DNA from: Narcine bancroftii
Lineage: Eukaryota
Length of the DNA stretch: 64,000 nucleotides
Direction: 5' to 3'
Assembly (NCBI RefSeq): GCF_036971445.1
Contig: NC_091476.1
Location: 165,044,001-165,108,000 of the forward strand
The notes under the pieces were generated by a model, which saw only the letters and a list, made by a program, of their open reading frames with translations, had not been told where the DNA came from and did not search any database. Within the stretch, counting starts at the first letter, position 1. Each line of letters begins with the position of its first letter. Of this stretch, positions 7,011 through 41,945 are shown in pieces. The position numbers and the translations under genes were made by a program.

Positions 7011-7124
7011 ATATCTAGGAACCAGATCTGCTGGATTGCACTTTTTAACAGAAGACATAATTGTATGTCCAGGAAAGCCTCACAATAAAAGCTTTCTCAA
7101 CAATTATTTAGGAATGTAAATGGA

Positions 7125-10100: not shown

Positions 10101-13100
10101 ATTATATTATAATACTTTATAAACTTATCAGTTTGAGCGCTTAATTAATCAATCTAAACAATGTTATAATAAGTTGGGGGAAAGAGCCCATAAGGTACTT
10201 GCTTGGCAATTGAAAGCTGAACAGACATCTCGGACTATTAATGCCTTTAAGAATTCAAAAGTTACATAAACCTCAGGACCAGTTTTATTCATTTTATCTA
10301 AAATTATATACTTCTGAGAGGAAACAGGATAATGGTTCTATTGACTCTTACTTATCTAAATTAAAGTTACTGGTATTAGATGGAAATGATGTTCAAGAAT
10401 TGGAATCTCCATTTGAAATTAAGAAAGCTATTCAGGAAATGCCTAATGGAAAGTCCCCAGGGGATGATGGATTCCCTGTGGAATTTTATAAACTTTTTTA
10501 TGATGATTTCTCTAATATATTTCGAAAAGTGTTGAATCAAGTTACTGAAGATCAGAAGTTACCAGTAACATGGTTTTTTTTTAATTTTTATTTTTCACTC
10601 TATGAACCATATTAACCAAAATACACACATTTCCCTCTTGAATATACACAGTGTCATTTTTTCCCCTTTTCCCCCCTCCCTTTGCTCCCTCCTTCACCCC
10701 TACTCAATGTTCAACATATATGATACATTAAACAATGTCATCACACAATGAAATTAACAAGAAATTTGTGTCATCCACTTTTACATACTGGGTCAGTTCA
10801 TTTCGTCTTCTTCTCCTTCTGTCATTTTAAGTGGTGGAGGTCTGTGGTAGGACTTCTCTGTTGTGTTCCATGTACGGTTCCCAAATTTGTTCAAATACTG
10901 TGATGTTATTTCTTAAATTATATGTTATTTTTTTCAAATGGAATACATTTATTCATTTCTATGTACCATTGCTGTACTCTCAGGCTCTCTTCTAATTTAC
11001 AGGTTGACATAATACATTTTTTTTGCTACAGCTAAGGCTATCATAATAAATCTTTTTTGTGCTCCATCCAAATCGAGTCCAAGTTCTTTACTTCTTATAT
11101 TACTTAGAAGAAAGATCTCTGGAATTTTTTGGTATGTTGCTTTTCGTGATTTTATTTAATACCTGATTTAGATCTTCCCAAAACTTTTCCACTTTCTCAC
11201 ATGTTCAAATTGCATGTACTGTTGTTCCCGTTTCCTTCTTACAGTGAAAACACCTATCTGATACTGTTGGGTCCCATGTATTTAACTTTTGGGGCGTGAT
11301 ATATAGCCTGTGTAACCAATTATATTGTATCATGCGTAACCTCATGTTTATTGTATTTCTCATAGTTCTGGAGCATGTTACCAGTATCATGTTCAAGTGC
11401 TTTAATAACTGTTATTCCAAAAAAAGATAGAGATCCATTAAAAGTGTATTCATATAGACTTATTCCTTTATTAAATGTAGATTATAAAATTATAGCAAAA
11501 GTATTAGCTAATAGACTTGCTAAATATTTACCCAAATTGGTACATATTGATCAAACATGTTTTATTAAGAATACAAATACATCAGACAATATATTTTGAT
11601 TAATTACTTTGGTCAACACATATCGAAAGCAACCTAACCTAATGGTTGCATTAAATGCAGAAAAAGCTTTTGATAGGGTTGAGTGGGATTTTTTTATTTA
11701 AAGTGTTAGAGAAATTTAAATTTGGCCCTTTTTTATTGGTTGGGTTAAGGCTTTATATACGAACCCAATTGCTAGGGTAGTGACAAATGGACAGATTTCT
11801 TTACAATTTAAATTGACTCGTTCAACTCAACAGGGCTGCACATTGTCACCAGGCTTATTTGCATTGGTTATTGAATTGTTAGCTCAGGCTATTAGACAAA
11901 ATGAAGAAATTAGAGGGATGAGGGTTAAAAATGAAGAATATAAAATTAACTTATTTGTGGATGATGTGTTGGTATACCTGACAGAACCAGAACAGTCATT
12001 GAAACAATTGCAAAAGTGTTTGTTGAAATTTGGAGAATTATCAGGATATAAAGTTAATTGGGATAAAAGTGAATTTTTTTCACTCCAGTTGGAGTGGGAG
12101 ATTATTCTGAATTTAAAACTATTACAAAATTAAAGTGGACAAGTAAAATTAAATATTTAAGTGTGTTTATGGATACTAATTATCAATCATTATATCAATT
12201 AAATTATGTACCTATATTAAGATGGATTAAAGCAGATTTGATTAAGTGGAAAGATCTTCCATTAACTTTGATTGGTCAAGTTAATTGTATTAAAATGAAT
12301 ATTTTTTCCTCAAATTCAATATTTATTTCAGTCAATACTTTGTTTAATTTCTAAGGGTTTTTTTTTCAATATTTGATTAATGCAATGCGAGAATTTTTAT
12401 GGAAAGGTAAATAGCTCGAGTAACATTGCATAGACTTATATGGAAGTATGCATTGGGCGGACTACAATTACCACATTTTCAAAACTATTATGAAGTGGGC
12501 CAGTTGAAGTTAGTAGATTGATGGATTTAGATCAGTCTCCTAGCTCGGATAAAGTGGAGATGCATGTATTTCTAGGGTTGAGATACATTAATTTATATTT
12601 TGTTGGAATTTGATTTTATTACAGCAATATGATATGCTGATATTGAAACATTTGTAAAAGATTTGGATTAACAAAAAGGGTGTTCGGGTCGAATGATAAA
12701 TTATCAATGCTAACTCCAATAATCAGCTTATTCCTTTTTCAATGTTTAATAATCATTTAAAGATTTTGGATTCCAAAGGTATAAAGACAATACAAGATTG
12801 TTTTGAAGAGGGGCAATTTATTTCTTTTAATCAATTGAGAGAAAGATTTAATATACCTGTAAATTCTTTGTTTGCGTATTATCAACTTAGAACTTTAATA
12901 AAAGATAAATATGATAGAGAGATGATTTTACCTACCTTGTTGAGATTTGAATCTTTGGTTTCCTCTATACTGAAAAAGGGTTATGTATAATTTGTTATAA
13001 GATAGTATTGATAAACCAGATTGGGAGAAATCTAAACTTAAATGGAAGAGTGATTTAGTATTTATTTTTCCCGAAGATGATTGGGTGACTATGTGTCAGG

Positions 13101-13760
13101 ACAATGTAATTAAATTGACTAATGTGCGATATGGAATGGTTAATTATAATTTTTTATATCAATTATATTTGACCCCAGAAAAGCTAAAAAAAAAAAAAAT
13201 GGATTTAGTAATTCGGATTCTTATTTTAGATGTGACTCATGTATTGGAACTTTTCTACATGCCGTTTGGACTTGTGTTAAAGTTCAATCATTTTTGACAA
13301 GGAATTAAAGTAGTTTTGGAAAAATTATATAATTTTATACTACTGTTAGATCCAACAATTTTTTTGTGGGGAAATTTGTATTCATTAAGGGGAATGGGAT
13401 TGGACAAAATTCAAATTGCTTTTGTACGTTTGGTGTTATCAGTAGAGCGTAAATGTGTTGCTAGTACTTGGAAAGATGATACTGAGATTAATATATCAAG
13501 CTGGCACAATGAATTGAAAATATGTATTGTCATGGAAAAAATTACATAATTTACATGATAATTTTTATTTTATTGGTAAGTGGTCTCTGTATTTGAAATA
13601 TATGCATTTAGATATACTTTGAAATGTTATTAACATTTTAAATATTTTCTTTATATATATATATATATTTTTTTTTTGCTCCCCTTAAGGGAGTTGGCTG
13701 GAGGGGTGGGAGGGTGGTGTGGGCATTTAAAAAAAAAGGAATGTAATTGGATGGATAAAA
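7125..13760 (+). mobile_element. Near full-length, degenerate L1-clade LINE (ORF1 ~7264-8687; ORF2 APE-RT ~9100-13600)
   Basis: 5' CAAGATGGC motif; ORF1 coiled coil with LENQSQRYNVKIVGLPE and FRYPA; ORF2 FNVQGLNNPIKR, DFNCVLDP, SRIDLF, GKSPGDDGFPVEFY, LNVDYKIIAKVLANRL, LFVDD; many stops and frameshifts. Confidence 0.92.
10573..11376 (-). mobile_element. 5'-truncated L1 inserted antisense into ORF2 of the larger L1, with a 15-bp TSD
   Basis: T-run tail at about 10574-10582; QYNWLHRLYITPQKL...RCFHC zinc-knuckle region; TSD GTTACCAGTA(A/T)CATG at 10558-10572 and 11377-11391. Confidence 0.88.
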
Positions 13761-14551
13761 AGAGGACATGCTGCACCTCTCACAGTCATACAGTAAAGTG
13801 CTGTGAGAAAGTGAGCAGTTGGTGGAGATGGAAGAGCAGACATCAGAGCCCTGAAAGGAACTGTCTCGGCTGCTATAGGGAGAAGGGGAGGAACAGCCTT
13901 TCTTGTTTTTTGATTTCCATTCATGAAGTGGGTAAACAAAGCTTCCCATAACAGAAAACTGAGAAACCCCTTCAAAATGGTGAAAGGTTTGCCCTCTTTC
14001 TCTCCTTCTGTAGCTCATCTTTCACATGTCAAGTATTAAGATTCAGAATTATTTTGCCATATGATAAAAACAGATGTTATATTACCATCAGCCTCATACT
14101 TCTTACAATCAGAGAAAGAGAACCAAAAGAGAGTCCCTTTGGAGTCACTGACTGTCCAAGGATTTGCCCTCCAGCCTCTGCAGCTGCACAGACTTCAGTC
14201 CAAACCATCACCCGATCCAAACCTCCAACATGATCAGGATGCCTTCAGCGCCTGAGGCTGCTTGGGATGCCTTCTTGCCCATGGCTCCCTCTCACTCCCC
14301 AACTTTGATATATGGTACCCATAGTCAGCTGGCCAGCCCATCAGAGTGGGGCATTGCAGCCATGTGCTATTGAGTTGGGCACCGATTTCGAAGCACATAG
14401 CCTGACTTGGTCGGTGAGTGGGAAGGTTGAGAATCACTGCTCTAGACCAAATTGTTACTGAAATATTTTGCTTGAGACAAATAATCATTGACCCATCTCC
14501 TTTGGAGTTATGAAACAGTGCACATAACGAGTCAATTAGGTACAATTGAAA

Positions 14552-14683
14552 CAGTGATTTTCAAACTTTTTCTTTCCACCCACATACCACCTTAAGCAAT
14601 CCTTTAATAATCATAAAGCAGCTATGGCATAGGGAATACTTAAAGTGGTATGTGAGTGGATAGAAAAAGGTTGAGAACCTCTG
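14552..14683. mobile_element. hAT-like MITE (~132 bp, largely palindromic)
   Basis: CAGTGATTTTCAAACTTTTTCTTTCCACCCACATACCACCTTAAG ... CTTAAAGTGGTATGTGAGTGGATAGAAAAAGGTTGAGAACCTCTG. A related TIR lies at about 14425-14439. Confidence 0.75.
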
Positions 14684-14739
14684 CTTTAAAGCCTTCATCC
14701 TATAGACCCATTTTGTCATTAAATGTAATTATAAAATTG

Positions 14740-17700
14740 TTGCAAAAATGTTGGTGAATAAAATGACTAAATTGTTACCTAAATTAGGTTTTGTGAAAAA
14801 GAGACAGTTGGCTGAGGATGTGGCTAGATTACTTTGTATAATTCATTTAGCAAAGAAAAAGGAGAGATTTAAGTGATGCAGCGGCTCTAGATGCAGAAAA
14901 AAAGCATTTGATAGACTGGAACGGGACTTTTTGTTAAGGTGCTGGATAAATTTAGATTTAGTTCAACTTTTTAAATTGGATTAAGGCACTGTATAATAAT
15001 CATTAAGCTAAAGTTGTAACTAATGGGCAATTATCTGCATCATTTCAGCTGGTAAGGCCAATTAGACAAGGATGTCACTTATTTCCTGCATTTATTTTAG
15101 TAAATGAACCACTTGCAGAAGCTATTTGCAGTGATTTGGAAATTAAGGGATTTAGAATTGGTCAAGAAGAGCATAAAATTAGTTTATTAGCAGATGATTT
15201 ATTTGACTAAATCAGAAGCTTTTTTACAAAGATTGTATATTAAATTGGAAGAGTATGGGAAAATTTGGGGATATAAAATAAATTGGAATAAAAGTTAAAT
15301 TATGCCATTAATGAAAGATTGTACTCAATGCCACAGGGATACTCAGTTTAAATGGCCGAAGGATGGTATTAAATATTTAGGGATTCATGCAGACAATAAT
15401 TTGAAGAATTTATATAAATTGAACTATTTACCATTACTTAAAAAAGTTGAGGAAGACTTTTAAAAATGGATTAATTTACCTATAACTCAAGTAGGTAGAG
15501 TTAATTGTATTAAGATGAATATATTCCCACGAATACAGTATCTTTTTTAAATGTTACATGTTTTAAAACCTCAATTTTGTTTTCAAGAACTGAACAAACA
15601 TATAAGGAAATTCTTCTGGAATGGTAAAATGTCAAGAGTCTCCATAATATGGACATATGAATTAGGAGGCTTAAAATCTCCTAATTTCAAAAATTATTAT
15701 TGTGCAGCACAAATGATGTTACATACTTTTTTTGAAAGAGTAGAAAAAATGGGTTAAATTTGAAATGAATAAAATTGGAGGGAGAAAATCAGAAGAATTT
15801 ATATATAAATGGGATCCAAAATTGATGGTTGGAGGAAAAGTAACACAATTTTTGAAATATTTGATTAATATGTGGAATAAATGATGAAATTGATGTAAGA
15901 GGTTATATATATAACCTAAGATGCCTCTGACCCAAAATTCCCTTATATCTTTTTCAAAAGACAATCAAATTTTAGACATTTGGTTTCATAAGGGGATTAT
16001 AAATGAAAACTGTTATGAAAGAGGTCAATTAATGACATTTGAACAATTGAAAAATACTCTGTTTTGTTACTTTCATTTGTGAGCATATTTGTGAGATAAG
16101 TTAGGATCAATTATGTTGCTGCCTACCTGAGGTGAAGTAGAATTTTTTTTTAATCAGAAGAGGAATTGTTAAGAACTTCACTTTTGTAATCTTTCTTTGG
16201 CTTGACTTCGCGGATGAAGATTTATGGAGGGGTAATGTCCACGTCAGCTGCAGGCTCATTTGTGGCTGACAAGTCCGATGCGGGACAGGCAGACACGGTT
16301 GCAGAGGAAAATTGGTTGGTTGGGGTTGTGTGTTGGGTTTTTCCTCCTTTGTCTTTTGTCAGTGAGGTGGGCTCTGTGGTCTTCTTCAAAGGAGGTTGCT
16401 GCCCGCCGAACTGTGAGGTGCAAAGATGCACCGTTGAGGCGATATCAGCCCACTGGCGGTGGTCAATGTGGCAGGCACCAAGAGATTTCTTTAGGCAGTC
16501 CTTGTACCTCTTCTTTGGTGCACCTCTGTCACGGTGGCCAGTGGAGAGCTCACCATATAACACGATCTTGGGAAGGCGATGGTCCTCCATTCTGGAGACG
16601 TGACCTACCCAGCACAGTTGGATCTTCAGCAGCGTGGATTCGATGCTGTCGGCCTCTGCCATCTCGAGTACTTTAATGTTAGGGATGAAGTCGCTCCAAT
16701 GAATGTTGAGGATGGAGCGGAGACAACGCTGGTGGAAGCGTTCTTGGAGCCATAGGTGATGCCGGTAGAGGACCCATGATTCGGAGCCGAACAGGAGTGT
16801 GGGTATGATAACGGCTCTGTATACGCTAATCTTTGAGGTTTTTCAGTTGGTTGTTTTTCCAGACTCTTGTGTAGTCTTCCAAAGGCGCTATTTGCCTTGG
16901 CAAGTCTGTTGTCTATCTCGTTGTCAATCCTTGCATCCGATGAAATGGTGCAGCTGAGATAGGTAAACTGGTTGACCGTTTTGAGTTTTGGAGATGTGGG
17001 GGTGCTGGTAGTCATGGTGGGGAGCTGGCTGATGGAGGATCTCAGTTTTCTTCAGGCTGACTTCCAGGCCAAACATTTTGGAAGTTTCCGCAAAGCAGGA
17101 CGTCAAGCGCTGAAGAGCTGGCTCTGAATGGGCATCTAAAGCAGCATCGTCTGCAAAGAGTAGTTCACGGACAAGTTTCTCTTGTGTCTTGGTGTGAGCT
17201 TGCAGGCGCCTCAGATTGAAGAGACTGCCATCTGTGCGGTACCGGATGTAAACAGCGTCTTCATTGTTGAGGTCTTTCGTGGCTTGGTTCAACATCATGC
17301 TGAAGAAGTTTGAAAAGAGGGTTGGTGCGAGAACGCAGCCTTGCTTCACGCCATTGTTAATGGAGAAGGGTTCAGACAGCTCATTGCTGTATCCGTCCCG
17401 ACCTTGTTGGTTTTCGTGCAGTTGGATAACCATGTTGAGGAACTTTGGGGGGCATCCGAGGCGCTCTAGTATTTGCCAAAGCCCTTTCCTGCTCAGTGTC
17501 AAAGGCTTTGGTGAGGTCAACAAAGGTGATGTAGAGTCCTTTGTTTTACTAAAAGTGGAGTTCATAAATCTAGACAGAGGTGGGAACTGGATTAAATGTC
17601 ACATTTGATTAACAAAGATGGGTGGATCTTTGTAGAGATTCCATGACTATTATTAATGAAAGATATAGATTAGTTCAGTGTAATTTTCTACGTCAGTTAT

Positions 17701-19090: not shown

Positions 19091-21259
19091 GATCGGTCTG
19101 CTGGACTTTTTGAGCCTGCTCTTCATCCAGTAAAGTTGATAATTATCACATTAAATATCAATGACTCAGGAATGCTCAAGCTGATTGTGAAGTACCTGTA
19201 CACCAACAACTCCTTATTTGGCAATTAGGGATACAACCTGCTATAATAAATCCTAAGAAACATGTATGGAAAAAGGATTGTGAGTCTGAGTGTTCTGAAA
19301 AGACAAGTTTGTCTATATAAATATACAATGTGAGCCACACAGCAGATTCCCTTGGAGTGAGACTAGCCACTTGTGGCAGTGGTTCTTTGCAAAGCTCAGG
19401 CTCCACTCCTGCTGGGGTTCAAATCCATTCTTCAAACATGTAGGGAATTAAGAATCAAAGACTATGTATTTACTATCTTGGTAGGTGTCTCTAAATCTCT
19501 ACTCTGTACGCATTCATGTTCAAGAGATTTGATTTGTTAATTTCTCTTGTTCTATTATTTCAAATGTGTTAAGATGACTGCTCAAAAAATCCATAAGAAC
19601 CAATTATTAAATCATTAGAAAATAAAATTCTGCCAGAAAAAAGGTAAAACCATGACTAAATAAAGTCAATGAAGGGATTAAGGAGGTCATGGTATGACTT
19701 GCAGCATAGTTAATGTGTTTTCTTGGAGAGGCCAAGATATTTGAGGCACAATGGCCCCAAGATAAATACAAATCATCTCTGCCATTCAGTAAACTTGATT
19801 TTCCTTCATCCTCTTAAAGCTTACATTTCCCAATCTCTTTTCGAATCCAGATAAGTGTGAAGTGATGCAGTTTAGAATGTCAAGCCTTAAAGTTCCTTTT
19901 ATTGTCACATTAAAAATGTATTTAGCTTTTACCTGCCATAAAGCAGTTGCCATTAGTATTAACCAATATCCCTTACCACAGATAGAAGCAAGAGCCCCTT
20001 CAGATTTATTAAGATTATTCCTTGATTTGACACACTTAGAGACAAAGTCACCTCTCATTTTCTCCTTGGAGCAAAGGATGAGACATTACTTGAGGTCTTC
20101 AAGATTATGACAGGGAGATTGGGTGGATAACAAGCAGGTTTCTCCCTGAAGTGAGAGTAGAAAATGGCAGAGGACATTTGTACAAAGTGAGGGGAGGAAA
20201 GTTTAAGGCAAACTTCAGAGGTATTCCTCCTCCTCTTACACCCACCCCCCCCCCCCCCACCAACCTGAGAGAAGTTAGTGTTTATTGGCCAAGGTAGGGT
20301 AAGGTTTGTCAGTTTCTATTGATCAGCAAATATTTTGCTTTTTTGTGCTGTAACATTCTATGCTTGAAAAATATTTACTTTAATTTCTTGCTATTTTCTA
20401 ATTCATTCTCTCATTTTACACATCTCTATTAAATATTTTTGTTGAATTTCCAAAACTTTCCAAGGTTCATTCCTGATTTCGACCATGTTCAGACTCTTCC
20501 TTTAACAACTAACTTTCATTATCAGAAATGATTGGACAATTTTCTGACTGGACAAATACTCAATTTTTTTGAATTGTGAATTATTTTAATGTTTGGCTTT
20601 TTTATCTTAATCCCTGATCATTACCTATTATCCAGTTTGAAATTTTCAGATCATTTTAGGGGAAGAAAATTGGTTGGTTTGAAGATTTTTGATATACAAA
20701 TTACTACAAAATGCTTGCAGGGATAATTAAACATTTGAATAAAAGTATTTACAAGTGTGCCACCGATCTTTAAAATAAATGTCCAAGAACAGGTCCTGGA
20801 GCCTTCATGTCAATGCAATCACAAAGGCTTGCCAGTGGCTATTCTTGGGAGTTTGAGGAGATTCAGTACATCACCACTCAAAAACTTTGACAGATGTACC
20901 ATGGAGAGCATTCTGGGTGGTTGTATCATGCAACTTTACTATAAATATTTTAATGCTTTGTCTGCTTCCATCATACCTTGACATTCTTGTAATGAGGTAA
21001 AGATTAGTGTTTTGTTGTGAGCTATTAGCCAATGTCCAAATATTGTTTAAAAAGTATAAATAAGTGTAAAAAAAAAACCAATTTTCTCCTCCTAAAATGA
21101 TCTGAAAATTGCACCTGTAGATATTTTTAAAAATCAAAACCTTTTTATTTGTTATTTTATAAAAGGATCATGGAAGGAACACTCACTTTACAATCGCCTT
21201 GTCAACCTTCATTGCCACTCACCTATCATGAAACTAAGTTAATACCCTCCTCTTCCCAT

Positions 21260-21400
21260 CAGGGACACATGCATTTAAGGTGAAGCAGTGATTTACATTC
21301 ACTTCCTCCATTCAACAGTACTGCATTGTGTTCAGTGGTCTTTATGACAGAAATCAAATGTAGATTGGGCAACCACGTTGCAGAGCACCAGCACTGCAAC
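21260..21400 (+). mobile_element. Penelope-like element GIY-YIG endonuclease remnant
   Basis: FKVKQ*FT.TS....YCI...EIKCRLGNHVAEH resembles the PLE GIY-YIG motif. Confidence 0.55.
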
Positions 21401-21959
21401 ACTAAGCCATCACAAGTTCAGGAAAATTTCTTTTTTTTCTTTAAAAAGCGACAAATAAAGCTTTCTACTACCACTATAAAGTTGGCAGAAATAGGTGTTA
21501 CAAAAAAAATCAGACCAAAACTAGTGTTTGAATGCTCTCACCCTTTAAACAGTACACAAAATCACAAGTCAGAATATGGTTGCAAACAGAATGGGATCTT
21601 AAGACTGAAAGGTACATGACATTTATGACAGTTAACATGGGAACATGAATGGATCATCAGTTATCTTGTAAAGCTTCAGCATTATTCTTACTTTTAGATT
21701 TGTCTTCTCAGAATGGATAGTAATATTACATTAGTCTTCTGTAACACCAATTCAACCTGCAAGCTAAGAGCAGCAAATCTCAACTTTTTTGGCTATGGCC
21801 CTGAGGACTCTGCTCAATTTATGGGGAAGTAGTGAAGCTTTGGTTTCTTCTGTACTTCTCTCCTGCTTACTACATTAAAATAATTGTTACACGAGATGAA
21901 AAAAACTTTTACATAATGCGCTATGCCCCCCCCTCCCCCCATTGAGAATGGCTGATCCA

Positions 21960-22345: not shown

Positions 22346-23164
22346 TTATCAACCTCCTACTTCACACCTTCAGCTTACCAAGCACCTTCCTGTATTAATG
22401 ACATTATTTCTGCCCAAACTCTTGATTTGTGGGCATATCTGGATATGGGCAAAATGTAGGCAAATTGTTTGGAACTGACAAATTGGGCCAAATGATCAGT
22501 TTCCATGCTGTTAAACTCTACAAATGATGGATGAGAATTTGATGGCATACACTTAAAATTTCAAGAAATATTGTGGACAATGAAAGCATTCTGTGAGACC
22601 CAACTTTGAGCAATAGATAGACTGGATGGCAAAGAAACTATTGGCATAATTAGCGAATAGTAATATGTACACCTTCCAATTTTTTGCAAATTGCATGAAC
22701 ATACAGGCACTAATTAGGAACCCTAAATGTTTATTGCCAGAAAATGAATGGAAAAATAAGAGGTCATGTCCCAGTTATTCTTCTTGGAGATATTAACGTA
22801 TTAGAGGCAATTTGGAGAACACTGAAAATAGTTGGATTGAGGCAGTCATCTTACAACATTGGACACCAGGATATATTTTGTAGAGTTAAAAAATAAATCA
22901 TAAAACAACAATTAAAACAAGATCAAAAAGAGCCTCAATATTACCATGCACAAACTGAAGCATGGCCAATAAATTGGACTACTCCAATAAATTTGATTAT
23001 AGTTACCTGGAAAAATAAGGCAAGCACCATTCTAAAATCAACCATTCTGACCAAGACAAGGCTTCTTGATTTTTTTTAAACAGCTCTTTCAGTATCATAC
23101 ATGTGTTCTTCAAAGCAACAGCCCAAGTTGCATCTCATATCCCCACAAAAGAACACAATTTTGA

Positions 23165-23255
23165 ACACAAATCTTAGTGACTTTATTTACATTGACAAAA
23201 ATAAATGGGTGTCATGAAATGAGGTTGTGATTCGGGCAATCCTCCATCCAAGATC
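23165..23255 (-). terminator. Candidate distal terminal exon with poly(A) signal
   Basis: Long pyrimidine tract tttatttctttaattctcctcag|GATC; AATAAA on minus at 23182-23187; downstream GU-rich TTGTGTTCTTTTGTGGGG. Confidence 0.6.
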
Positions 23256-24236
23256 CTGAGGAGAATTAAAGAAATAAAATTAGTCTTGCTGAAAATCTGT
23301 TCATTTCAAATAGTCCAATGTATTCATGCCATCACAAAATTTCCCATTGTAGCAGGTTTGTCTGATGTCAGTGCTGAGATGGTTTTGGTACCGATCAATC
23401 TTTTGTGACAGATGAATAACCCAAACAGAAATTTGCCTTAGGTCTGTAAGTTAACCACCCAGTTCGGGTATCTCACTGTCTTAAGGTCACATGATGAAGC
23501 ACAACTGCAGCCCGTGCAACTGAAAATAGGCAGTGAATGTGAATCTCTGCAATTGTTGTTATATTGCAAGGCACATTTTGTAGCATTGCCATGTACGCTT
23601 GACCTTGATGCTGATTCCAAGAGATCTGAAAAAATGAATTATCTGCCAACATTGTGACCCTCCATTGTCTTGCACATGATAGGTAGCCCACCATCTACGG
23701 AATGTACCCAACTCTTCAATTCATATTTGCCCAAGCAAATGAATCCAGCCATCTAGCTCTTTACTGCAGATCATAGCCCAGTCTCAGGAGGTATTCAATT
23801 GATTAAACTGGACATCTAAGATCAAGGATGTAAATTACCTAAGTGGTTGCAAAAGTTCTGGTTCCAGCTGATAGTAAAGTATGATACTTGACATCATGCG
23901 AAACTCACTGTTCAATCTCAACACCAGCAAACCTTTTGGGTACACATGGATTTTTGGGCAGTTCCATCCAAATGCTGCCATCGTTACTGACTACTGAAAA
24001 ATTAAGTGCTAACTACAACATCTTTTATAGCATTTTCAAGCTGTTATTTTCATAGTTCAACAATATTCTGTTCTCAAGGTGCAGACCAATAAAAATGCTA
24101 AGACACGAATGTATTAAAATTGGATACCAACTGAAAATACAAGTCTTAAATTTGGAAGGATTCCCAGACAGGCACCTACTTTGACAAAAAAATCATTGAT
24201 TATTGGTCTTCAACATCCTCCGTTTTATATACTTAC

Positions 24237-24302
24237 CCCTCTTCATGACGTGTAATGACTGACCAGATGTTAAATAGTCTGGTATGTGGCTTTACACAGA
24301 AT
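24237..24302 (-). other. Candidate distal non-coding exon of SFPQ, 66 nt
   Basis: gctttcttttttcag|ATTCTG...GAGGG|gtaagt; near-consensus splice sites. Confidence 0.6.
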
Positions 24303-25251
24303 CTGAAAAAAGAAAGCATAAATCAGCACAAGCTTGTATCATTATAAACTGGTTTCTTAACGGAGTAGGCTACACTGACAAGGTGCATTGTGTTCATCAA
24401 TAGATACATTAGTCAGCGCTTATGAGCTAACAGACTTAGAATCAGAAGAGTGTTCACCTGCAAAGGCAGACGCAACAACCTACTTGTGCCTAGTGACATA
24501 CATTTAATTGAAAAAAAATCTAATAGGCCTTTTTAGACAACAAGCTCAAAAATTCTGATGTCATCAATACACCTTGGAATGTGGGATGGATCTACAGGAC
24601 CCAGAGGAAACCTGCATAGACACAAGGATAACACAAGAACCCCTTGCAGCATTGTTCCAACCAAAATGTGCTACACTTTTTAGGAATAAATCAGTAAATC
24701 AAAGGTCTACCCAACATGACAAACTAATTGCCCATGGGATGCATTTAGTTCTGGTCACCACTGCTCAGGAAAGATATGATGGCAAGGATGCAGCCAGGGT
24801 TGCAGAATCTTAAATTGAGTTTGACTTCTCAGGGGAAGCTTTCAAGTTGATTTTTTTTTTCTCCACCCAGACAGAGGCAGTGAGAAGTAACCAAAAACAT
24901 ACACTAATGGGTTACAAAGTGCCATAACCAAAAAGGTGAATGCATCGATAGAGGAGACTGCTGGTTAACTGGAGAACATAAAGCTGTGGAAGAACTCAAA
25001 CTGCAGAAAGCAAAAGTTTCGGGGCTCTTTTAAACTTCCATGGATGCTGCCTGATCTGCTGGGTTCCTCTAGGGTGAATGAGATAGCTGGTTTCCAGGTA
25101 AGATTCCTCAGGAAAGGACTAAGGTCCAAATAACTGTTCCCTGCCATTGTGCAAATGAAAAATACCTTATCTTCTAGCTTCAAATATACTACAAAACTTA
25201 AAATGTGATCAAGTCTATTCCAGAATATTTTAGAACTTAGCAGTTACTTAC

Positions 25252-25304
25252 CAGTATTTTAATATACCAGTAGCCTGTCAACGTGCATCAAGCTCTTTCC
25301 ATGC
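25252..25304 (-). other. Candidate distal non-coding/poison exon of SFPQ, 53 nt
   Basis: gtgttctctttag|GCATGG...ATACTG|gtaagt; reads AWKELDAR* if joined to exon 8. Confidence 0.6.
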
Positions 25305-28300
25305 CTAAAGAGAACACATTAAGTTAGTAAGAGCTTAATGCCAGCTGATACATTGATAAATCTGCTCAGATCACATTACATTGGAAAACTGCCATACAAA
25401 TACAGCCCAAATGTAGATCTGGTATACAAAAGTTGACCAAATTCCCCGGTAGCCTCAGTGCCACTGTTTCCACAGTAGCACCCATTGACTAATATTTATG
25501 GGGAAAGAACAAGTAAACTTGAAAGAGGTTACAACTGATGTGCATCAGAAAGCACTTGTGTACTTTGTACTGACTTGCCTACATAGGCCGACAGAAAGGA
25601 GCAAAGCAAGAATTTATGCTTTAAGCCAAGCTTCACTTAGGCAATTATGGCACTCGGAACAGGGTTAAAACTACTCAAATTAAAAATTTTAAGTTTGAAC
25701 AGGCCAAATAAGATTGACCAAACTAGCACAAAAATAAATGCCTAATCAGGCAAGTGTAAGGGAAGTTACACTCATCTCAGAAATGATTCCAACCTCATTT
25801 ACAACACTAATAGATACCAAATATCCCTATTATGTATGTTCTGGCATCACTCTCCTGCACAGAGGCTCAAAATATTGTAGCCAAATTGAACTGAAAAAGC
25901 TCAGTCTTAGAGAATAATTGAGATGGAATACAGTGCAGACACTTAGCTATCTATTTTCAGAACCCCAAAGTCCAGTGTAATGAATTGATCCATGATTTCA
26001 GCTCTAGGGACAAGCCAGAAATTGCTTTTTACAGAAAGCATACTTCATTGCTCATTCTAAAGAGGCAATAATTTCTTTGACTAAGTATGTCTTCCAAATA
26101 TAGAATACAAATGTGATCAACACTTCAGCTTCAATATTGCATAGTGTTAATCTTGTTGTCAGCTTGTTAATCAATTAAACCAAATCAAGATTGCACTCGA
26201 GAATACTGCAGATGACTCTTGTGTCAAAATCCCAGCATTGCAACAGGATAACCACCATAAAATGGTCAAAGAACAGAACAATGTCAAGGACCATGACAAT
26301 ATTTACATCTTCTGCCCTAATCTTAAAACATTCTTCACAGCAACTTCACCCAAACAATCTAAGCAGTCAAGTCCAACATACCACCATGATCACCAAGTGT
26401 TTTCCTCTAGATGGTTTCAAGGATGTGAAGTTTGCAGAGATAAACTTAACAGAAAACTAATGACTATATCAACCCCAATACTGATCATATGTGATCCATA
26501 AGATTGGAGCACATCACTTCATCTCTTAATGAATTGACAAGCAAGCCATTTGCTGATCAACAGTCTCAAAGAAAGCAAACCCAAAATACTGTGATTTGGC
26601 CAAGGCCCATTCCAGTTATGTAATTAATTTTAATGAGTAGTCAGATGCCAAAAGGGCAAATACTTGGTTACCAAGTCCAAGGAAGATGCAAGAATTTCCT
26701 ACCAAAATTAATAAACTACTTTTCAGTACGTAGTATCAGATGCAGTATAAATCAGTTGAAGTAATGAATGACATTTACAGAAATTATACTTGCCATATAC
26801 AACAGGCAAGTATTGTTAAAAATTCTGCCAAACTTGTAACGGATCTTCCTACATTCAAATACATGGTCTGGTCTTAGGATCTCTGGCCAGATAGTCCAAT
26901 GATCAAGACAGATTGTAGTTAGTCATTACAAAGCTGACTTGGTAAAAGGCAAAAACCACATCTGGGCTATACTAAACATTACAGGAGATAAACCAAGTAC
27001 AATCAAGAGGTGCAAACATTCATGGTACAGGGATCTGACAGAGGCTCATCATGAGCAAGCTGATTAAATTGCCACAATTCCAAATTCAGTTGGCAGATCA
27101 AGCTGCCATTCCCTTCACAATTGCAGGCAATTGCACACCCACCCCTTCCCTTTTCCAAACCCCAAACATTATTACAAGTGTCATTCCAGTTATGGCAATA
27201 AGTGGCCTACAGCACATGTACTTGTTGATCATGCTGCTTTATTTATGGTCTTGGCAAAACTCAAGGCAGGTGCAGTGTTTAGAAAAAGATATGTTGAATA
27301 GATAAGCTACAACATTCCTATTTGAAGTCCACATCACATATCCAAATATACAATTGAAGACAGAAGGTACATCTACCTCTTAGTTGATGATCCACAGACA
27401 CACTGAGATCTTAATGCTGTGGTACAACAGTATTTCAAAGCTGCACTAGTAGCTGTACATCACTTGGCCTGTAATGCATCATTGATACTAGTCAGCAATG
27501 AATGCTAATAGTCCAACCGCTTAAAGTGCTGCACTGTAATCACACTGTCAGAAGGGTGATGCCTGAACCATTTCACTGACTTAAGAAATTACGAAAGACA
27601 TTTTAACAAGTTATTTGTACATACCTGTATGCAGTCTGTACTGTGTACCGCAGAACAAGCAGGAATACTATTCTCCAGGTCTTACTGCCCAATCCCATTT
27701 GCAGTACTACAGATCCTCAATGTAATGTATTGCAGACAAGCTGACTGTATTTATTCGCTGGAGAGTGGCATTACTTGCAATGTTGCAGCATAATTGGCTG
27801 CCAGCAGCCACTTGCTGGCTTGTAACTCAGATGCGTTGCCATGTGACCTGAGAATCTGAAACTGTTACAACTTCCACTGAAGAATACTGTACTGGGGAAG
27901 ACAAGTTATTTTAATTTGTTCCCAGACTTGATGGGCATTGCAAAAATGAGCACCTGAAGACCAAAAAGGCAACTGAACTTTCCTTGTTTTCAGATTAACT
28001 GATACATTAACCAAGTTCAAAAATAGACAAGAAAAAAAATGTAAGCAAACCTTTCAGCCAAAGTAACTTTGCTCCAATTAAAAAAAGGGATTCACTAAAA
28101 ATATATTGCGACCAAATGCACAAGTTGTGGCATCAAAAAAATTAAAAGGGTTTTCAAAAAATTTCCAAGCTCTGTTTACACCACCTAAAGAACTGAAAAT
28201 TCCCCAATAGATTCACAAAAGCCCCTAGTTACATGTAATATACCAAACCACATCGACCAAGTTACCATAAAGATTTGAAAAGATAGAAACCTAATTATCA

Positions 28301-28805
28301 AACCCATCTAAATATACCAAAACCCATGTTCAAATGCAGCAATGTTAAGGGAAGAGAAATAAAGTTACTGAAAGCCTGTAAAAGGTACTAAACAGCAAGC
28401 CAGAGCAGTTATTCATTTAAATCCACAAGCTGATTGCAGTCACTTACAGGGTTATTTGGAAAGGGTTCAAATTATCCACACTTTGGTATCAACTACATTG
28501 CATACCCTGGGATTCCACCACCCCACCTTCCTCCCCCTCCCCCCACCCCACCCACACCATTTTCAAATTGAAGTCAGAATTACTTTAAACCTAGTTGCAA
28601 CTCCCAGAATTTTGATTAAAAATATCCAATTTTGGACTGAAGCTTATGCTCAGAAATAGCAAATCAATGATTAAGCTTGGTTGCCCCTCACGAGTAAACT
28701 GCATCTACGGCCTAGTTGGACCATGTAAAAAGTGTACAGGTGTATTTGGTTAAATGTTCAAACATGCCCCACCACCCATCCCCACAAATAAGTTTTAACA
28801 CTTAC

Positions 28806-28891
28806 CATTATCTCAATGCTAAACAGCAATTATTTGTTGGCACAGCATGTTACTGCTTGGTTTCCAGTTACCCATTGAAGCTCTTCAGCTT
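28806..28891 (-). other. Candidate distal non-coding/poison exon of SFPQ, 86 nt
   Basis: cttctatatcttctgcctatag|AAGCTG...ATAATG|gtaagt; reads KLKSFNG* if joined to exon 8. Confidence 0.45.
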
Positions 28892-31297
28892 CTATAGGCA
28901 GAAGATATAGAAGTCACGTTCTGGTAGTCCTGGTATCCTGTGGCAAATTCATTCTTATGAGCAGATCTGCACCTCCCAGATCTTGCTACCGGATTCCAAT
29001 TATTGAAATTTTCCAATTAGTCATTCACGATGGAAGAGGACCAACTTTTCAATCAATAACTGAGGTGAAACCTTCATAAGTTAATAGTTGGTCCCACATT
29101 AGGTCAGTAGATTAAAAGGCTTTCTGGATCATTAACTGGAGATCTTTTGGAGAATATCTTTCACCAGATGAAATTCAATAAAACTGAAAATCAGCTGAGA
29201 CTTTAGAACTCCACCTTTCAGATCCTGTCTCAGTTTCACAGCAAACCCATATGGTAGAACTTTAATATCTACATACACAACAAAAAAAATTCTCCAAAGT
29301 CCAAAATTCCACAAAATAGTCCAGTGCTGTTGTTGATGTAATAAGTCCAAAGATGAAAGTATGTGCATCAATACCAGTAACTCTCGTGTTTACTAAATCT
29401 TGTGCACATTATTTTTGCACTTTTTACTGCATTTACTTCAATACACATTTCTATCATTGCTCGTTCCAAAATCCCAACTTGAGAGCTGGGACACCGGTGG
29501 CCCCAATTTCTGTCTCCTACAAGACCAATAAATTGGTTTACAAGCCTAATACTACAAAGTAACTACTTATTTACGCAGGAAACAGAAATTTGGTTTCATT
29601 GCAGTTTTGAGTTATCATAACCTCTGTGGTTTTGCACAACTAGACAGCCAATGCCATTTGGCATCAAGTCATACAGTGACTTGCACTATGAACTGATTTC
29701 ATTAAGTGGACCAGAAATGACAGTGGGGCAGGCCAAGTTGTGGCTAAATGAAATTTTATAAACCCAACTCAAAATACAAGAGGAATAAATGTTATGATTA
29801 AGGTGTACAATCAAAAACAGTGATGCAATTGGCATTGCCCAAAATATCAGCAACCCCAGAGCTTCTGCTTTAACTCGACAGGTGACATTTGAAGATCCAG
29901 AAATCAGATATCAAATTGCAGGAAAGCAGAGTTTGTTAAAATAAAGGTTAAAAAAAACCCTACCACACCTAGAGTGGAAATAAAACAAAAATCAATTTCC
30001 CAAACCATGGATGAAGCCCAGCATCACAAAATTCAATGCCTAAAAATCAGTGAGCCCAGAATAAGGAGCTTCAACATTTAGCAATGTCAACCAACCTAGT
30101 TGGATCTTAGCCAATAGATTGTTTCCATGGGGCAAAGAAATTGTCAGCTTGGGTGCACAGTTGCTGCATCAAACCAGCTTTAATGGATAGCACTGAAGGT
30201 AAAACCAATTTGTCTCCAAGGTCAGATCTTCACAATCTAGGTTCACTCTGAATTATGCAGAGCTGGCCACCATAGGTTCTCAAATTTAATCTTCAGACTA
30301 GCAAATTAAAAGAAGTTAAAATAAAATTGTGCTTAGCATTAATATAAACATTTAACATCATATGCACCAGCTGCAGCAACACCTTCCTTCACTCCCAATA
30401 TGGGAAAACATACATATCTAAAAATGTAGTTGCCAAACCAGACTCTTGGATGCCAGTGGACTTCACTGCCACACCTGACTGAATGTGCTTGCAAGTATCA
30501 GGGAAGGAAAAACCCCTTTTAGAACAATGTTCAGTCCAACTTTATCCAAAACTAAATCCACAAAAGAACAAAGAATCCCTTTTGAAAGTTTGCATGAAAT
30601 CTAATTGGATGACGATTTGTATTTATGACTAAAAGTTTCAAGACCTGACTGTCTATTGTGCAGTGAAGCAAAACACTACTTGGCTCTTTGGCCGACTGCA
30701 AATTAAATCAAAATTCAGATATCAGGCTGAAAAAAACCTCACTACTTAAAACCACACAATTGTGAATTGTGTTTTCAGTGCAATTCTATTCCCTTCAAAT
30801 AATTATCTTCACAATTGACTGAGATAAGTGGCACAGAGTTTGCAGTAGTCAGCAATACCTGTTCCACTTATGAAAGCTGAGATCTTGTTCTTTGTTAATA
30901 ACAACTCATTTCAAATTAGCACTACGAATGAGTTTTAATTTAAAAAGATGACCAAAATACAGAATTCCACCATTTCAAAACAAGCATTTAGCCTGCACAA
31001 TTAAACATGCTTCTACAATGACTCAAAGAAATACATGAAGCATACTTTCTAGAGGTTTAATGGCACTTCAGTGTACAGTTGAAGTACTGGAAAAAGATGC
31101 CTATTTGCACTTTCACTTGCTTGACATAATTCAACATTCACAATGTGCCAGTGTGAACTGTTACAGTTTACAAAGTTTAGTCAATACACAAATCTGAATA
31201 GGCATAAAATGCAACTTTGCCACCAACTAAAAAACGCAATTATGAAGAGCTCTCATCTAAATGACTATCTGGAATGCACACTAAAGGGCTACAAAGT

Positions 31298-31432
31298 TTA
31301 GTATCTAGGCTTCTTATTAGCCGTTTCATATTCTTCTCTCCCTCTACTAAAATTGGGACCAGTAGGCCCCATAGGACGTGGGGGCTGAGTATTCATTGGA
31401 CCTGGGGCTCCCTGTCCAAAGCGGTCATTACG
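31298..31432 (-). CDS. SFPQ: SFPQ last coding exon 9 including stop codon, 135 nt
   Basis: Acceptor aatag|CGT; translates RNDRFGQGAPGPMNTQPPRPMGPTGPNFSRGREEYETANKKPRY*. The C-terminal NKKPR(Y/F) NLS is typical of SFPQ. Confidence 0.95.
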   Translation of the reverse strand, partial: RNDRFGQGAPGPMNTQPPRPMGPTGPNFSRGREEYETANKKPRY

Positions 31433-31434
31433 CT

Positions 31435-31675
31435 ATTGGAAGTTCATCACACATGGTAGCAATCAAAGTCCATACAAGTTGAACATTACAAAGTGAGGAA
31501 AATGTGTAACATTTAGATCAGGGAAGGCATCCGTAGTCAACGTTCGTCGATTACAACCAGGAATGGGGCGATCCACAGGTACCAGGCACATAAAAAGGAA
31601 AAAAAGAGGGCAAGTTGTTCATTAGTTTACCGACCGGCACATGGAGGAATCCATGGTGGGTATAATCCTCCCATG
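31435..31675 (-). promoter_or_regulatory. Distant branch point, polypyrimidine tract and AG-exclusion zone upstream of the last SFPQ coding exon
   Basis: No AG dinucleotide on the minus strand from 31667 to 31435. ACTAAT at 31626-31621 is followed by a U/C tract at about 31612-31581. Confidence 0.75.
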
Positions 31676-33723
31676 ATTTATGACAGCTTAAGAACAATGG
31701 CTATTCTGCTTTAGTGCAAACAAACCACTTTAACAATAAAGGAATGCAGTGCAATACGCACAAAATGTGGGCTTTTAGCTGTTCATCACTGTTGCAATCT
31801 CCACAATGAATGTCAGAGATGCAGATTTTTAACACTTCAAGTTAAATAGCCACTGGCCTTAATCGAAGTCACAAATTACCACCGACTTATTCCCACCCAT
31901 TTCCCTTTTAACAATCTGACTAACGCGCCAGTATTGTAGTACTGAATAGTTACTGAATGGAAATAATTTTGGTCCAGTAAAATATCTGTTATCACCATTA
32001 AGTCATGATAGGCCAAGTTTCTGACTTAAATAGAAAAATATCCGATCAGATGCCTTTACAGTTTAAAGGAGCGATGTTGTAGAAATTTTAATGTACAAAA
32101 TTTTAGACTGCAAACTACAATCACAGTACAGCACAAGTACTACAACACTGGATCATCATTACCATCAAGGATTACCTGAGAAAAATACTGCAAAGGAATC
32201 CACTATTAGAAGTCCATAATTATCAGGTCATTTCCCTCAGTTTTTTTTATGCCTTGCCAAATTTACCACTTGCACAGAACTCAACCATTTGGAGGATAAG
32301 GCAAGCAAGTAAGCCATGACCCAAGGCATACTGTTGTGTTAAGAGGACAAGCATAGCCTCTTTCAATTTACTTCATAGATCAATGTCTCTGCAGCCTAAC
32401 TGCAGCATATACTGCCAATATAATTACCCAGTACAAGATCAGAGATTTGAAAAATTTCTCAAACAGAAAACCAATGATTCAACCATTTGGAATTGGATTG
32501 GACATTCAGGATCAACAGTCTCACATTATGAATATCACCTCTACTCACCCCATCTTGCCACATGACCCATTTTTTCACTTAAGTATTAAGTCTGTCTTCT
32601 GCACCCTTTCACTGTACCAGACCAAAAGGTCAGGATCAGCAATGTTAAGATGCAGGGAAATTGTATTTATTAGCTGCTGCAGTTGAACAATCACAGGAGC
32701 CATGGGATAGCCTATTTCCTCCTGTGCTACAATTTCTGACCATATAACTGGTCATTAAAATACAAGGATTTCTGCACTTTCTAACAAAATACATCCACAC
32801 TAATTTCAATATTGCAGTTTGTTATATACTGGAAGAATGTGCTTGATATTTATGTATGTAACAGCAGCTACAAATGCCAGAACATTTGGACAGGAAAGTA
32901 TCAATTTCCTATGGAACAAAAACCAAACTGATTTGACTGTATAGACAATCAGCCTTCTGTATCAGAACAATTGCAACCTTATCACTTGGAATCGCCAAAA
33001 TATCCCACTAGCCAATCTGAAGTTACGATGGAACATTATCATTCTTGGCATGAATACAAGTAGTTCACTGTTATTTCACCCCCCCAACCCCCCACCAAAA
33101 ACAATTAGAAAAATTGAAACCCACCCAGTTTTCCTGCAAACCTAATTTCCTCACAAAGCCTTGGCCCCAAGCACACAATCCTACATTCTGATTCTATTAA
33201 CTCACAACTTTGGTAATCCAGTTAGTGAAACACTTGTTTAAATGCATTTCAACTGGGTTAAATTCACAATCTTCTGCCTTATAATCACACGGATTGCAAT
33301 CGAACTTACAAGCAGTAATGACTACCCTATAAACGTTTGGCGCAGCCAAACTTGAGCAGTGACATGGCAATTAGATCCTGTGATCAAGGAGCAAAACTGT
33401 TTAATATCAACTCCTGTAAATATATTAACATGTCACAATATATGTACTTTTCAGAAAGTTGAATCCACTCCCATGCCAAGTCCACACTAATTATTCAGCT
33501 CCTACAATGGCCTTATTCAAGCGGTTTCTAAGTTTGCCGTTTTGTGCTTTGTTTCAATAGCATCAAGCTAAGCAGATGAACTACACAAAAGGACATTTGT
33601 TCATACTGCAGAAAATCCATTACAGTCATCTCTTTGTTATTTTTATACCACTACCCTCACACATTCCGTTCTACAGCCAGATCATACATTCAAGCATTCA
33701 CTCTTAACTACAGTATGCTTTAC

Positions 33724-33869
33724 CCCTGCCATGTCGCTGGTGTTTGCGCTGGTGCTCATCATCTGTCCAGTCATCGCACTAGGTCCTCCAGGACTACTCA
33801 ATGCACTGTGACCTTCATAGGCCATTGCTGCCATTGGTGGAAAACTTTGGTTTGCAGTTGTATATTGTT
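33724..33869 (-). CDS. SFPQ: SFPQ coding exon 8 (C-terminal low-complexity region), 146 nt
   Basis: Acceptor tttcag|AA; translates EQYTTANQSFPPMAAMAYEGH...MMSTSANTSDMAG; donor GGG|GTAAAG. Resembles the human ...KFPP...YE...SDM exon. Confidence 0.88.
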
Positions 33870-34489
33870 CTGAAATTCAAGAATGAGGATTCAACAATAG
33901 AAACTAAATTTAAAAAGTGTCGATCATATTTACACAATACAAAATATGCTAAATTCTTCACAAGGAATATTCATCACTATTAGGCTACAATCAGGAAGAA
34001 TATACAGGAATCAAATTAAAAAATATCAGAAGAGTCCAAAGACAACTGAAAATCAATTGGGACAGAAATTAGAAGTTCCCAAAAGAAAATGTTTTTCTAC
34101 AAGTTTCAGTCTCAGAACTTTCAAATGCACAAGATCAACACATTTTGAAGTCTTGTACCCTACAAGATAGAATCAGTTCAAACAAGTTTTATCCTTTTAA
34201 ACCTGAAAATGACTGAAGTACCCAGCATCTATTCCACTAAACCAGTTTCCATTGCCAAGTTACTGATCCAATATTTGTTTCAATTAAGTACCCAAGACAT
34301 CAAAACAAAAGTCACCCCTTCAAACAACTGACAACCTCAAGAGTGGACTACTTCTGTATTTTAATAGTTTGATCCTTGACAATACTTGCCTTTACTGTTG
34401 TCATAAAGAGAAAAAAATACATTCATCTCATCATTTCAGCAAATATAACCAGACTCATAACCTCCTTCAAGCTGATGATTGACGTTTGA

Positions 34490-35590
34490 ATCACAACCAC
34501 TTGGACAGCCCCAACTCAGAGGTCAGAATGCTGTTCATTGACTTAGTTCAGCATTCAGTACTGTGATTGCCTCCAAGCTAATCGCCAGAATTCGCCATCT
34601 CATCCTTCTGAAACTGGACCTTGACTTTCTGACTAACAGACCCTTATCTATTAAGTTAGACAACCTCTCCATTCTCACCCTGAGGGCTGTGGCTGAGCCT
34701 TGTTCTGTACTTCCTTTTTACCTATTACTGTATTCCTGTGCATGGTTTTAACTCCATAATAGTTTCCTGACACCACCATTTAGTTGGCTGATCAGAGGGG
34801 AACGATGAGACAGCTGACAAGGATGAGATACAGCACCTGACCATGTGGTGTGCTAATAATCACCCACCCTTTAACACCCAGATAACCAAGGAGATCAAAG
34901 TGGACTTCAGCCATGCTGGGAGCCACATTCATGCCCAAATCTACACCAATGGAACTGTAGTGGAACATGATTCAAGCTTCAATTCAAATTCCTTGGTGCC
35001 CATATTTCCAATGATCTCACGTGGCCCTTGAACTCCTCCATCCTGATCAAAAAGGTGCCACAGCGGATTTCCTGCAGAGCATCAAGAAAGCTCACATTAG
35101 TCCCAGGATACTGCTGTACCTTAGAGCATACCCATCAATGGCATCTCAGTGTGGTATGGGAACAGTCCCATTATTTGATCACAAAGCACTCCCATGGGTG
35201 GCGAAATCTACCCAACAGATTATTGGCACCCAATTCCTCACCATTGAGAGCATTTATCAGAAACTCTGCCAGTGCAGGGCAAAAAGCATCATCAGGGATG
35301 CCTCTCACCCTGTGAACTTTTTAAACTCTCCTTCCATCTGATAGGTGATACAGGATCCTCCACTCTCAAACCTGCAGAAGTTTTCTGAACTGTGACCCTT
35401 ACATCTTACCGCTGAGCAGTATTGTACCCACATTGTACTGTCAGTACTTTTATACTTGTCCGTTTGCTTTTATTTGCAGTTACTTGTAAATAGTACTATT
35501 CTTTATACTTCCGGTTAGATGCTAATTGCATTTCATTGGCTTTGTATCTGTACTTGGCACAGTGACAATACAGTTGAATCTAAAATCTAA
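34490..35590 (+). mobile_element. Rex/Babar-like LINE fragment in SFPQ intron 7 (antisense to the gene)
   Basis: VRMLFID.SSAF.T, WC.NN...N...TKE..VDF, A.SII.D.SHP; 3' tail GACAATACAGTTGAATC. Confidence 0.75.
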
Positions 35591-41906: not shown

Positions 41907-41945
41907 CTCCGCCCGCCACCGCTAGGCGGCCCGGGCCGCACTCAC

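Follow-up and report, generated by a model that had tools for sequence, protein, structure and literature searches.

In the ray Narcine bancroftii, the penultimate coding exon of SFPQ splices not only to the last coding exon but also, skipping it, to a distal exon. We think that the distal route is probably the ray counterpart of human altSFPQ: exon 8 would be joined either to exon 9 or to three distal exons with an early stop, and the latter product is a predicted NMD target that likely limits the SFPQ level.

The window, the whole stretch of 64,000 nucleotides that was analysed, contains SFPQ on the minus strand with nine coding exons. Exons 1-9 form an open 577-aa frame that is identical from MSRD onward to RefSeq XP_069751887.1, and a database protein identical to ray SFPQ carries Pfam PF00076 and PF08075 (precomputed). 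Exon 8 ends in phase 0, and the two routes diverge at its donor, 33724. The relevant features are:

42563-41946, 40790-40489, 40275-40180 and 40002-39806, minus strand: SFPQ coding exons 1-4.
39540-39456, 39359-39245, 36032-35996 and 33869-33724, minus strand: SFPQ coding exons 5-8.
31298..31432, minus strand: exon 9, the canonical last coding exon, giving in translation 44 residues that end in NKKPRY.
28806..28891, minus strand: X1, a candidate exon of 86 nt with good splice sites and without junction support.
25252..25304, minus strand: X2, the stop exon of 53 nt; joints in contigs, and a tail that equals that of a RefSeq isoform.
24237..24302, minus strand: X3, a non-coding spacer exon of 66 nt; both junctions in all four runs.
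23165..23255, minus strand: exon T, the likely last exon of about 91 nt; acceptor joint in all four runs, presumed end.
21125..21869, minus strand: T2, a further exon or extended end; acceptor at 21869, AATAAA at 21149, low end approximate.

Junctions were taken from spliced contigs of four out of five runs, representing two organisms (A and B, approximately 3-8% diverged) and two studies. The canonical joint from 33724 to 31432 was present in all four runs. The joint from 33724 to 25304 was seen in both organisms and in two of the four runs, being missing from the two deepest, while 25252 to 24302 and 24237 to 23255 were each recovered in four of four. Hence, of the exon chain and junctions proposed in a preliminary description of this DNA, the path through 25304-25252 and 24302-24237 to the 23255 acceptor was borne out, whereas 28806-28891 had no joint in any run and 33724/28891 was found in none of the four. 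The distal junctions were seen joint by joint in contigs, not all together on one molecule. Contig depth, which does not measure expression, was 325 at the distal joints versus 1174 at the canonical joint, and 435 versus 850. A role of the distal exons as 5' UTR of the following gene was considered and rejected, given that they are joined to exon 8 of SFPQ and that the next gene-like match lies ~17 kb further.

The window sequence has minus-strand YAG acceptors at 28891, 25304, 24302 and 23255, and G/GTAAGT donors after 28806, 25252 and 24237; these splice sites, together with an AATAAA and a GU-rich element, are all located where the preliminary description had placed them. Under a strict cassette rule, 31297-20500 contained two cassettes (28891-28806 and 24302-24237), compared with a shuffle mean of 0.18 (P=0.018; 500 dinucleotide shuffles, with one cassette arising in 15.8%), and 25304-25252 failed this rule by one pyrimidine. 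An Rfam scan of the 64 kb window returned no matches, and a UG-repeat scan for TDP-43-like sites revealed nothing distinctive close to the 3' UTR. In translation, joining exon 8 to 25304 gives eight residues and then a stop (TGA at 25280-25278), and joining it to 28891 gives seven, in agreement with the earlier expectation of a stop within 8-9 codons. The 8-residue tail of the distal isoform thus replaces the 44 residues ending in NKKPRY, a loss that had been anticipated and that is also found in RefSeq XP_069751888.1. In human SFPQ, the NLS lies at the extreme C terminus (PMC12372870). The C-terminal KKPRY motif of ray exon 9 is likely an NLS by comparison, and its removal is predicted to affect localisation.

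For exon X1, no joint to 28891 or from 28806 was found among the contigs of the four runs, and none of the 223 fetched proteins ends in the X1 tail. The missing joint is weak evidence because contigs drop rarer variants, and even 33724/25304 was lost in the two deepest runs. It is possible, although we doubt it, that the X1 acceptor is a chance site and that a long exon 9 extends to the donor at 28806 and is spliced there, which would produce a full-length-coding mRNA with 3' UTR introns and a second likely NMD route. One contig of the run labelled X1 ends exactly at 28806, a weak hint that bears on the donor only. Moreover, 28571-29324 is the least diverged of eight segments between the two organisms (23/754 versus 398/7935 substitutions, Fisher P=0.016, chosen post hoc), and an annotated 12-exon mouse transcript has its last junction 2212 nt after the stop, compared with 2558 nt predicted in the ray. 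Against this, none of the four runs has a joint from 28806, contigs of the other three runs pass 28806 unbroken, and nearby G-rich tracts break contigs in all runs.

The AATAAA of exon T, at 23187-23182, is followed by TG-rich sequence after about 23165 and overlaps a splice donor (GT at 23190). Contigs cannot show transcript ends, and the end at ~23165 was deduced from the AATAAA and from comparative last-exon lengths (83-97 nt in mouse, zebrafish and human annotations). Upon closer inspection, three contigs continue unspliced past ~23165 and one splices out of exon T at 23191. An organism-B contig runs from exon T into sequence that agrees, on visual comparison, with the stretch starting at 21869 in 23 of 24 letters, and three organism-A contigs, if colinear, have their ends at an estimated 21017-21181. 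Exon T is therefore not always terminal: it is read through, and in organism B it splices on to 21869. The terminal exon described earlier at about 23165-23255 thus stands as to its acceptor, joined in four of four runs, but not as the sole end. We also noted that T2, as a further exon or extended end, was absent from that description.

The X2 tail is exactly that of RefSeq XP_069751888.1 (Narcine bancroftii SFPQ-like isoform X3), which is listed as a protein isoform; orthologous shark and ray isoforms are likewise listed in RefSeq as protein isoforms. Such a tail is present in 11 of the 22 named cartilaginous fishes examined, among them sharks, rays and a chimaera. After the same junction, tails with a length of 5-8 residues are likewise present in database entries from mammals, birds, turtles, a crocodilian, squamates, frogs, coelacanth, paddlefish and reedfish. 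Thorny skate isoform X4 stops after two residues; the tail sequence is thus only loosely kept, which fits a stop-giving role.

In the distal isoform, the distances from the stop to the junctions are 26, 92 and 157 nt. Since the stop lies 92 nt before the third junction (24237/23255), this isoform is a predicted NMD target; the X2 stop precedes the X2 donor by only 26 nt, and it is therefore the 66-nt X3 that makes the 50-nt rule apply. We propose that the exon 8 donor would choose either exon 9, yielding the full-length protein, or the distal route through 25304-25252, 24302-24237 and 23255 onward, on which translation would stop after eight residues and the likely NLS would be lost. By analogy with human work, proximal polyadenylation after exon 9 would compete with distal splicing, high SFPQ would favour the distal route, and an exon junction complex left at 24237/23255 would trigger decay, while mRNA that escapes may give a little cytoplasmic protein. 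Among the listings of a search of the non-subscription literature there were no NMD or SFPQ perturbation data on cartilaginous fish and no paper on an altSFPQ-type isoform in them, and four autoregulation terms had no matches in PMC7997972.

It seems unlikely that the main product of the distal route in rays is an NLS-less cytoplasmic SFPQ made from a stable, translated form, with decay being minor. Sharks and rays do retain the 8-residue tail, and the contig depth of the distal joints is sizeable; furthermore, human altSFPQ is partly translated according to section 8 of PMC12372870, a paper that proposes a stable transcript in 'lower-order organisms'. On the other hand, in both organisms the stop has two to three introns downstream of it, the 50-nt rule applies at 92 nt, and the tails vary widely among lineages, down to the two residues of the skate isoform. 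Far less probable still, and largely refuted, is a functionless origin of the junctions in splicing noise on read-through RNA or in a processed DNA copy. Unspliced contigs do cover the whole region, and the runs were guessed to be RNA rather than recorded as such. Nevertheless, identical junctions appear in the second organism at about 3-8% divergence, the tail is annotated in 11 species, and the joints fall exactly on GT-AG sites, with a depth of 7-10 in the X2-X3 intron versus ~870 at the X2-X3 joint (in the runs labelled X1 and X2).

A different alternative bears solely on origin and can hold alongside the decay switch: NMD operates, but the downstream exons of the ray arose independently of the mammalian ones. 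We regard such convergence as rather unlikely. Human primers have no significant nucleotide match to X3 or T, and the two downstream exons are described as poorly conserved (PMC12372870). However, the exon count after the branch is equal and the spacing near-equal in ray, zebrafish and human, and short tails occur at the same junction in every jawed-vertebrate group sampled. The decay switch itself thus likely goes back, from this comparison, beyond mammals to early jawed vertebrates. We lean somewhat towards the decay module (a stop exon, a ~66-nt spacer with the NMD-triggering junction and a ~90-nt last exon) being one unit inherited since the jawed-vertebrate ancestor, kept in geometry and serving self-limiting decay before any protein function, the reverse of the order put forward in 2025; the ray would add a poly(A) signal overlapping a donor and perhaps 3' UTR splicing from 28806. 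A 2025 study placed the origin of the two downstream exons in mammals and suggested a stable transcript for other vertebrates (PMC12372870). Contrary to that statement, the junctions in two ray-like organisms and a zebrafish annotation row indicate that the decay-triggering layout is old, so zebrafish and elasmobranch cells could be used for testing the loop. The suggestion in the preliminary description of an ancient, NLS-less, stop-containing route like that of human SFPQ gains support from these junctions, cartilaginous-fish annotations, and the human and zebrafish layouts. altSFPQ is up in ALS and FTD models, and its original purpose may have been a decay switch or a cytoplasmic protein. 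The novelty is modest, lying in the contradiction of the mammalian-origin statement; as the mechanism is already known, what is gained is a date in evolution rather than a new system.

Human altSFPQ (ENST00000470472 / NR_136703.2) resembles the ray isoform in branching at the penultimate coding exon, in a short tail without the C-terminal NLS, in two introns after the stop, in the distance from stop to last junction (105 nt versus 92 nt in the ray) and in a short last exon (94-97 nt versus about 91 nt). By contrast, the ray has nine coding exons to the human ten, its 8-residue tail shows little sequence likeness to the human tail of seven, and, on the ray side, organism B additionally splices its last exon to 21869. 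Decay, autoregulation and TDP-43 control have been demonstrated for human altSFPQ only, with NMD sensitivity and SFPQ autoregulation reported in section 7 of PMC12372870 and in PMC6547761 and PMC12586192. It is likewise in human alone that SFPQ has been shown to bind its own pre-mRNA and to favour the poison form. Exon by exon against human exons 11-13, geometry agrees and sequence likeness is weak or ambiguous. X2 is likely the counterpart of human exon 11; in a stop-register comparison it ranked 4th of 116. Tail-peptide rankings (one using 29 distinct tails, some of them probably from intron read-through, the other 10 tails hand-picked one per lineage) are ambiguous between X2, which came 2nd-10th of 601, and an X1 acceptor shifted by 3 nt, which came 1st-4th. 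The idea that the human 3-nt variant is located at the exon 11 acceptor, in the manner of the tandem acceptor of X1, was discarded, since both human transcripts have the distance of 105 nt and it is their UTR lengths that differ. The best matches of three human primers to the region were no better than chance; the last-exon primer tied for best at the start of exon T (14/21, at 4 of 13501 positions), not significant given the choices.

In the relevant row of supplementary file 3 of PMC7310861, zebrafish sfpq ENSDART00000151438 has, like the ray, a short intron-bearing 3' UTR (215 nt), with 12 exons, 126 nt to the farthest intron and, by subtraction, a last exon of 89 nt; this is an annotation row (Type code 2), from a paper that reports working EJC-dependent NMD in zebrafish. 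Unlike the poison exons of SRSF7 and U2AF1 (PMC6547761), the ray form substitutes an alternative 3' end for the last coding exon. That none of the three short human primers compared stands out argues against ultraconservation of a poison exon. Long ultraconserved sequence was not detected in the ray, where layout rather than sequence is kept. What ray SFPQ has in common with the AS-NMD of these splicing factors is the predicted self-limiting feedback via a stop-containing form.

SFPQ lies on the minus strand; translation of its nine coding exons gave 577 residues with a C-terminal NKKPRY, matching RefSeq XP_069751887.1 (electric ray Narcine bancroftii) from MSRD onward, which identifies the window as ray DNA. 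Since the first coding exon (41946–42563, minus) runs unbroken up to the end of the first part of RRM1, the ray gene has nine coding exons; the extra human intron presumably falls within the equivalent stretch. Human SFPQ has ten coding exons by the numbering in PMC12372870. Intron 1 starts with a GC-rich tandem repeat (unit ~28 nt, 41680–41930, read by eye in the sequence), and a 17-residue insert in RefSeq isoforms X1 and X3 maps to a small in-frame cassette (35020–35072, minus), possibly an exonised repeat, within the repeat-like intron 7. Skate isoforms (proteins P0029, P0032, P0034) use an upstream donor within exon 8 and have different short tails; in stingray isoforms (proteins P0006, P0024–P0026) a 7-residue insert sits where exon 3 meets exon 4.

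Beyond exon 9 (31298–31432), the canonical last coding exon, the preliminary description had proposed four exons as an ancient poison or alternative-last-exon pathway, and a sequence check located all four features as described.

Candidate distal exons of SFPQ (window positions)
28891–28806, minus: exon X1, donor G/GTAAGT
25304–25252, minus: exon X2, donor G/GTAAGT
24302–24237, minus: exon X3, donor G/GTAAGT
from 23255, minus: exon T, AATAAA at 23187

Distal donors match the consensus at 7–8 of 9 positions vs 5–7 of 9 for the eight coding donors. A strict cassette rule picks X1 and X3 only, against a shuffle expectation of 0.18; with P = 0.018 for two such cassettes but 0.158 for one, the cluster is above chance, whereas any single cassette may be chance.

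Five runs contain the stretch; contigs from four of them, three of organism A (one study) and one of organism B (diverging by ~3–8% by segment), were compared over 22700–34200. The runs are not recorded as RNA, yet they behave as spliced RNA because the canonical joint 33724/31432 occurs in all four and loose contig ends at 33872 in two continue as exon 7 (compared by eye). Being contigs, they give the presence of junctions rather than level, strand, ends or co-occurrence on one molecule. Three of the predicted distal junctions were recovered, all with GT-AG sites: exon 8 to X2 (33724/25304) in 2/4 runs, one per organism, and X2 to X3 (25252/24302) and X3 to T (24237/23255) in 4/4. That these joints are noise is thus a reading to which we give very little weight. 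The proposed chain is therefore supported at X2, X3 and the T acceptor; X1 has no joint to or from it in these contigs. In the two runs whose canonical joint is deepest, the exon 8–X2 joint is missing even though X2–X3 is there, which suggests pruning by the assembler and makes the absence of X1 joints weak evidence.

Unspliced contigs cross the last coding intron (31433–33723, minus) in 4/4 runs, a pattern like that of human SFPQ, in which intron 9 is retained. The acceptor of exon 9 has few pyrimidines (8/16). Unspliced contigs also span all 6 kb between exon 9 and X2 (25304–31297, minus) in 4/4 runs, the X2–X3 intron being thinly covered, and read-through RNA spliced solely from X2 onward may exist. 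A short repeat fragment at 25035–25072 draws numerous unrelated contigs.

The X1 tail ends none of 223 fetched proteins, and X1 is unlikely to be a cassette exon. Use of its donor from a long exon 9 is possible but doubtful; it is favored by the end of one contig, by local conservation that is slightly raised (noted post hoc) and by a 12-exon mouse row in PMC7310861 supplementary file 3. A G-run tract 250 nt past this donor (28533–28553, minus) is in principle G-quadruplex-capable, and contigs break or diverge there in 4/4 runs.

Joining exon 8 to X2 adds eight residues and then TGA at 25280–25278, which bears out the proposed stop within 8–9 codons. The stop lies 26 nt upstream of the X2 donor but 92 nt upstream of that of X3 (157 nt for that of T), and it is therefore X3 that makes the 50-nt rule apply. 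Decay of this transcript is predicted; EJC-dependent NMD operates this way in a fish, according to PMC7310861.

T is likely both a last and an internal exon, because three organism-A contigs pass unspliced through it to an estimated 21017–21181, close to AATAAA at 21149, and one organism-B contig leaves at a donor with GT at 23190, three bases ahead of the AATAAA of T, and continues as window sequence from acceptor 21869 (23/24 letters). Its predicted end near 23165 would fit the last-exon lengths of other species. An organism-B 3' UTR contig stops at 30276, right past ATTAAA at 30290; no AATAAA occurs within 28000–31297. Further downstream are LINE-like retroelement remains (16200–17600 and 7000–16000, read by eye) and an exon-like stretch (4455–4562, minus) weakly matching (tblastn, E=0.001) the non-SFPQ, presumably TMEM35-like, part of a fused bichir model; since the reading frame opened by the ATG at 4562 meets stops, the stretch may be frameshifted or mis-started.

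The X2 tail is that of RefSeq isoform X3 of Narcine bancroftii (XP_069751888.1). Of the 22 named cartilaginous fishes fetched, 11 have related tails, all from predicted models: one chimaera and ten sharks and rays. In one thorny-skate isoform the tail stops after two residues. Among the best 120 of 862 hits and ten clusters, tails of 5–8 residues at the same junction were found in mammals, birds, turtles, a crocodilian, squamates, frogs, coelacanth, paddlefish and reedfish. Against a published human primer in stop register, X2 ranks 4/116 and X1 66; primer scans over the whole region gave no standout match, and ranking of tail peptides was ambiguous. Orthology of X2 with human exon 11 is thus only weakly supported by sequence, and exon geometry is more telling. 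In four rows of PMC7310861 supplementary file 3, where Type code 2 is undefined in the header and distances are assumed to be spliced nucleotides, the UTR and the distance to the farthest intron are 199/202 and 105 nt in human, 215 and 126 nt in zebrafish (12 exons) and 2295 and 2212 nt in mouse (12 exons), giving last exons of 94–97, 89 and 83 nt by subtraction. The ray values are 183, 92 and 91 nt, with the end set at 23165. The shared tails across jawed-vertebrate groups and the near-equal human, zebrafish and ray geometry agree with an ancient architecture, sequence support for orthology being weak. Independent origin of the downstream exons, a question separate from mechanism, seems rather improbable.

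Human altSFPQ, as described in PMC12372870, joins exon 9 to 11, adds seven new residues, loses the NLS and has a stop followed by two introns; it rises 20-fold with cycloheximide and is autoregulated, and some protein is cytoplasmic. The loop was proposed in PMC6547761, with TDP-43 control added in PMC12586192 and bioRxiv 10.64898/2026.07.22.740184. We consider it likely that the ray uses a loop of this type: with SFPQ in excess, splicing would shift from exon 9 and its poly(A) sites to the distal acceptor, and the resulting transcript would decay. The splicing and the stop position are seen in the ray, and regulation and decay would follow by analogy with human. A chiefly protein-making distal route is unlikely, given the stop position; PMC12372870, which describes good conservation of the first distal exon, allows for a stable transcript in other organisms.

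We found no paper on an altSFPQ-type isoform in cartilaginous fish; the ray isoform is already partly annotated, and the loop is known in human. What the ray data add is a probable date, placing the NMD-prone SFPQ layout in early jawed vertebrates, and with it a correction to the statement in PMC12372870 that the two downstream exons are of mammalian origin.
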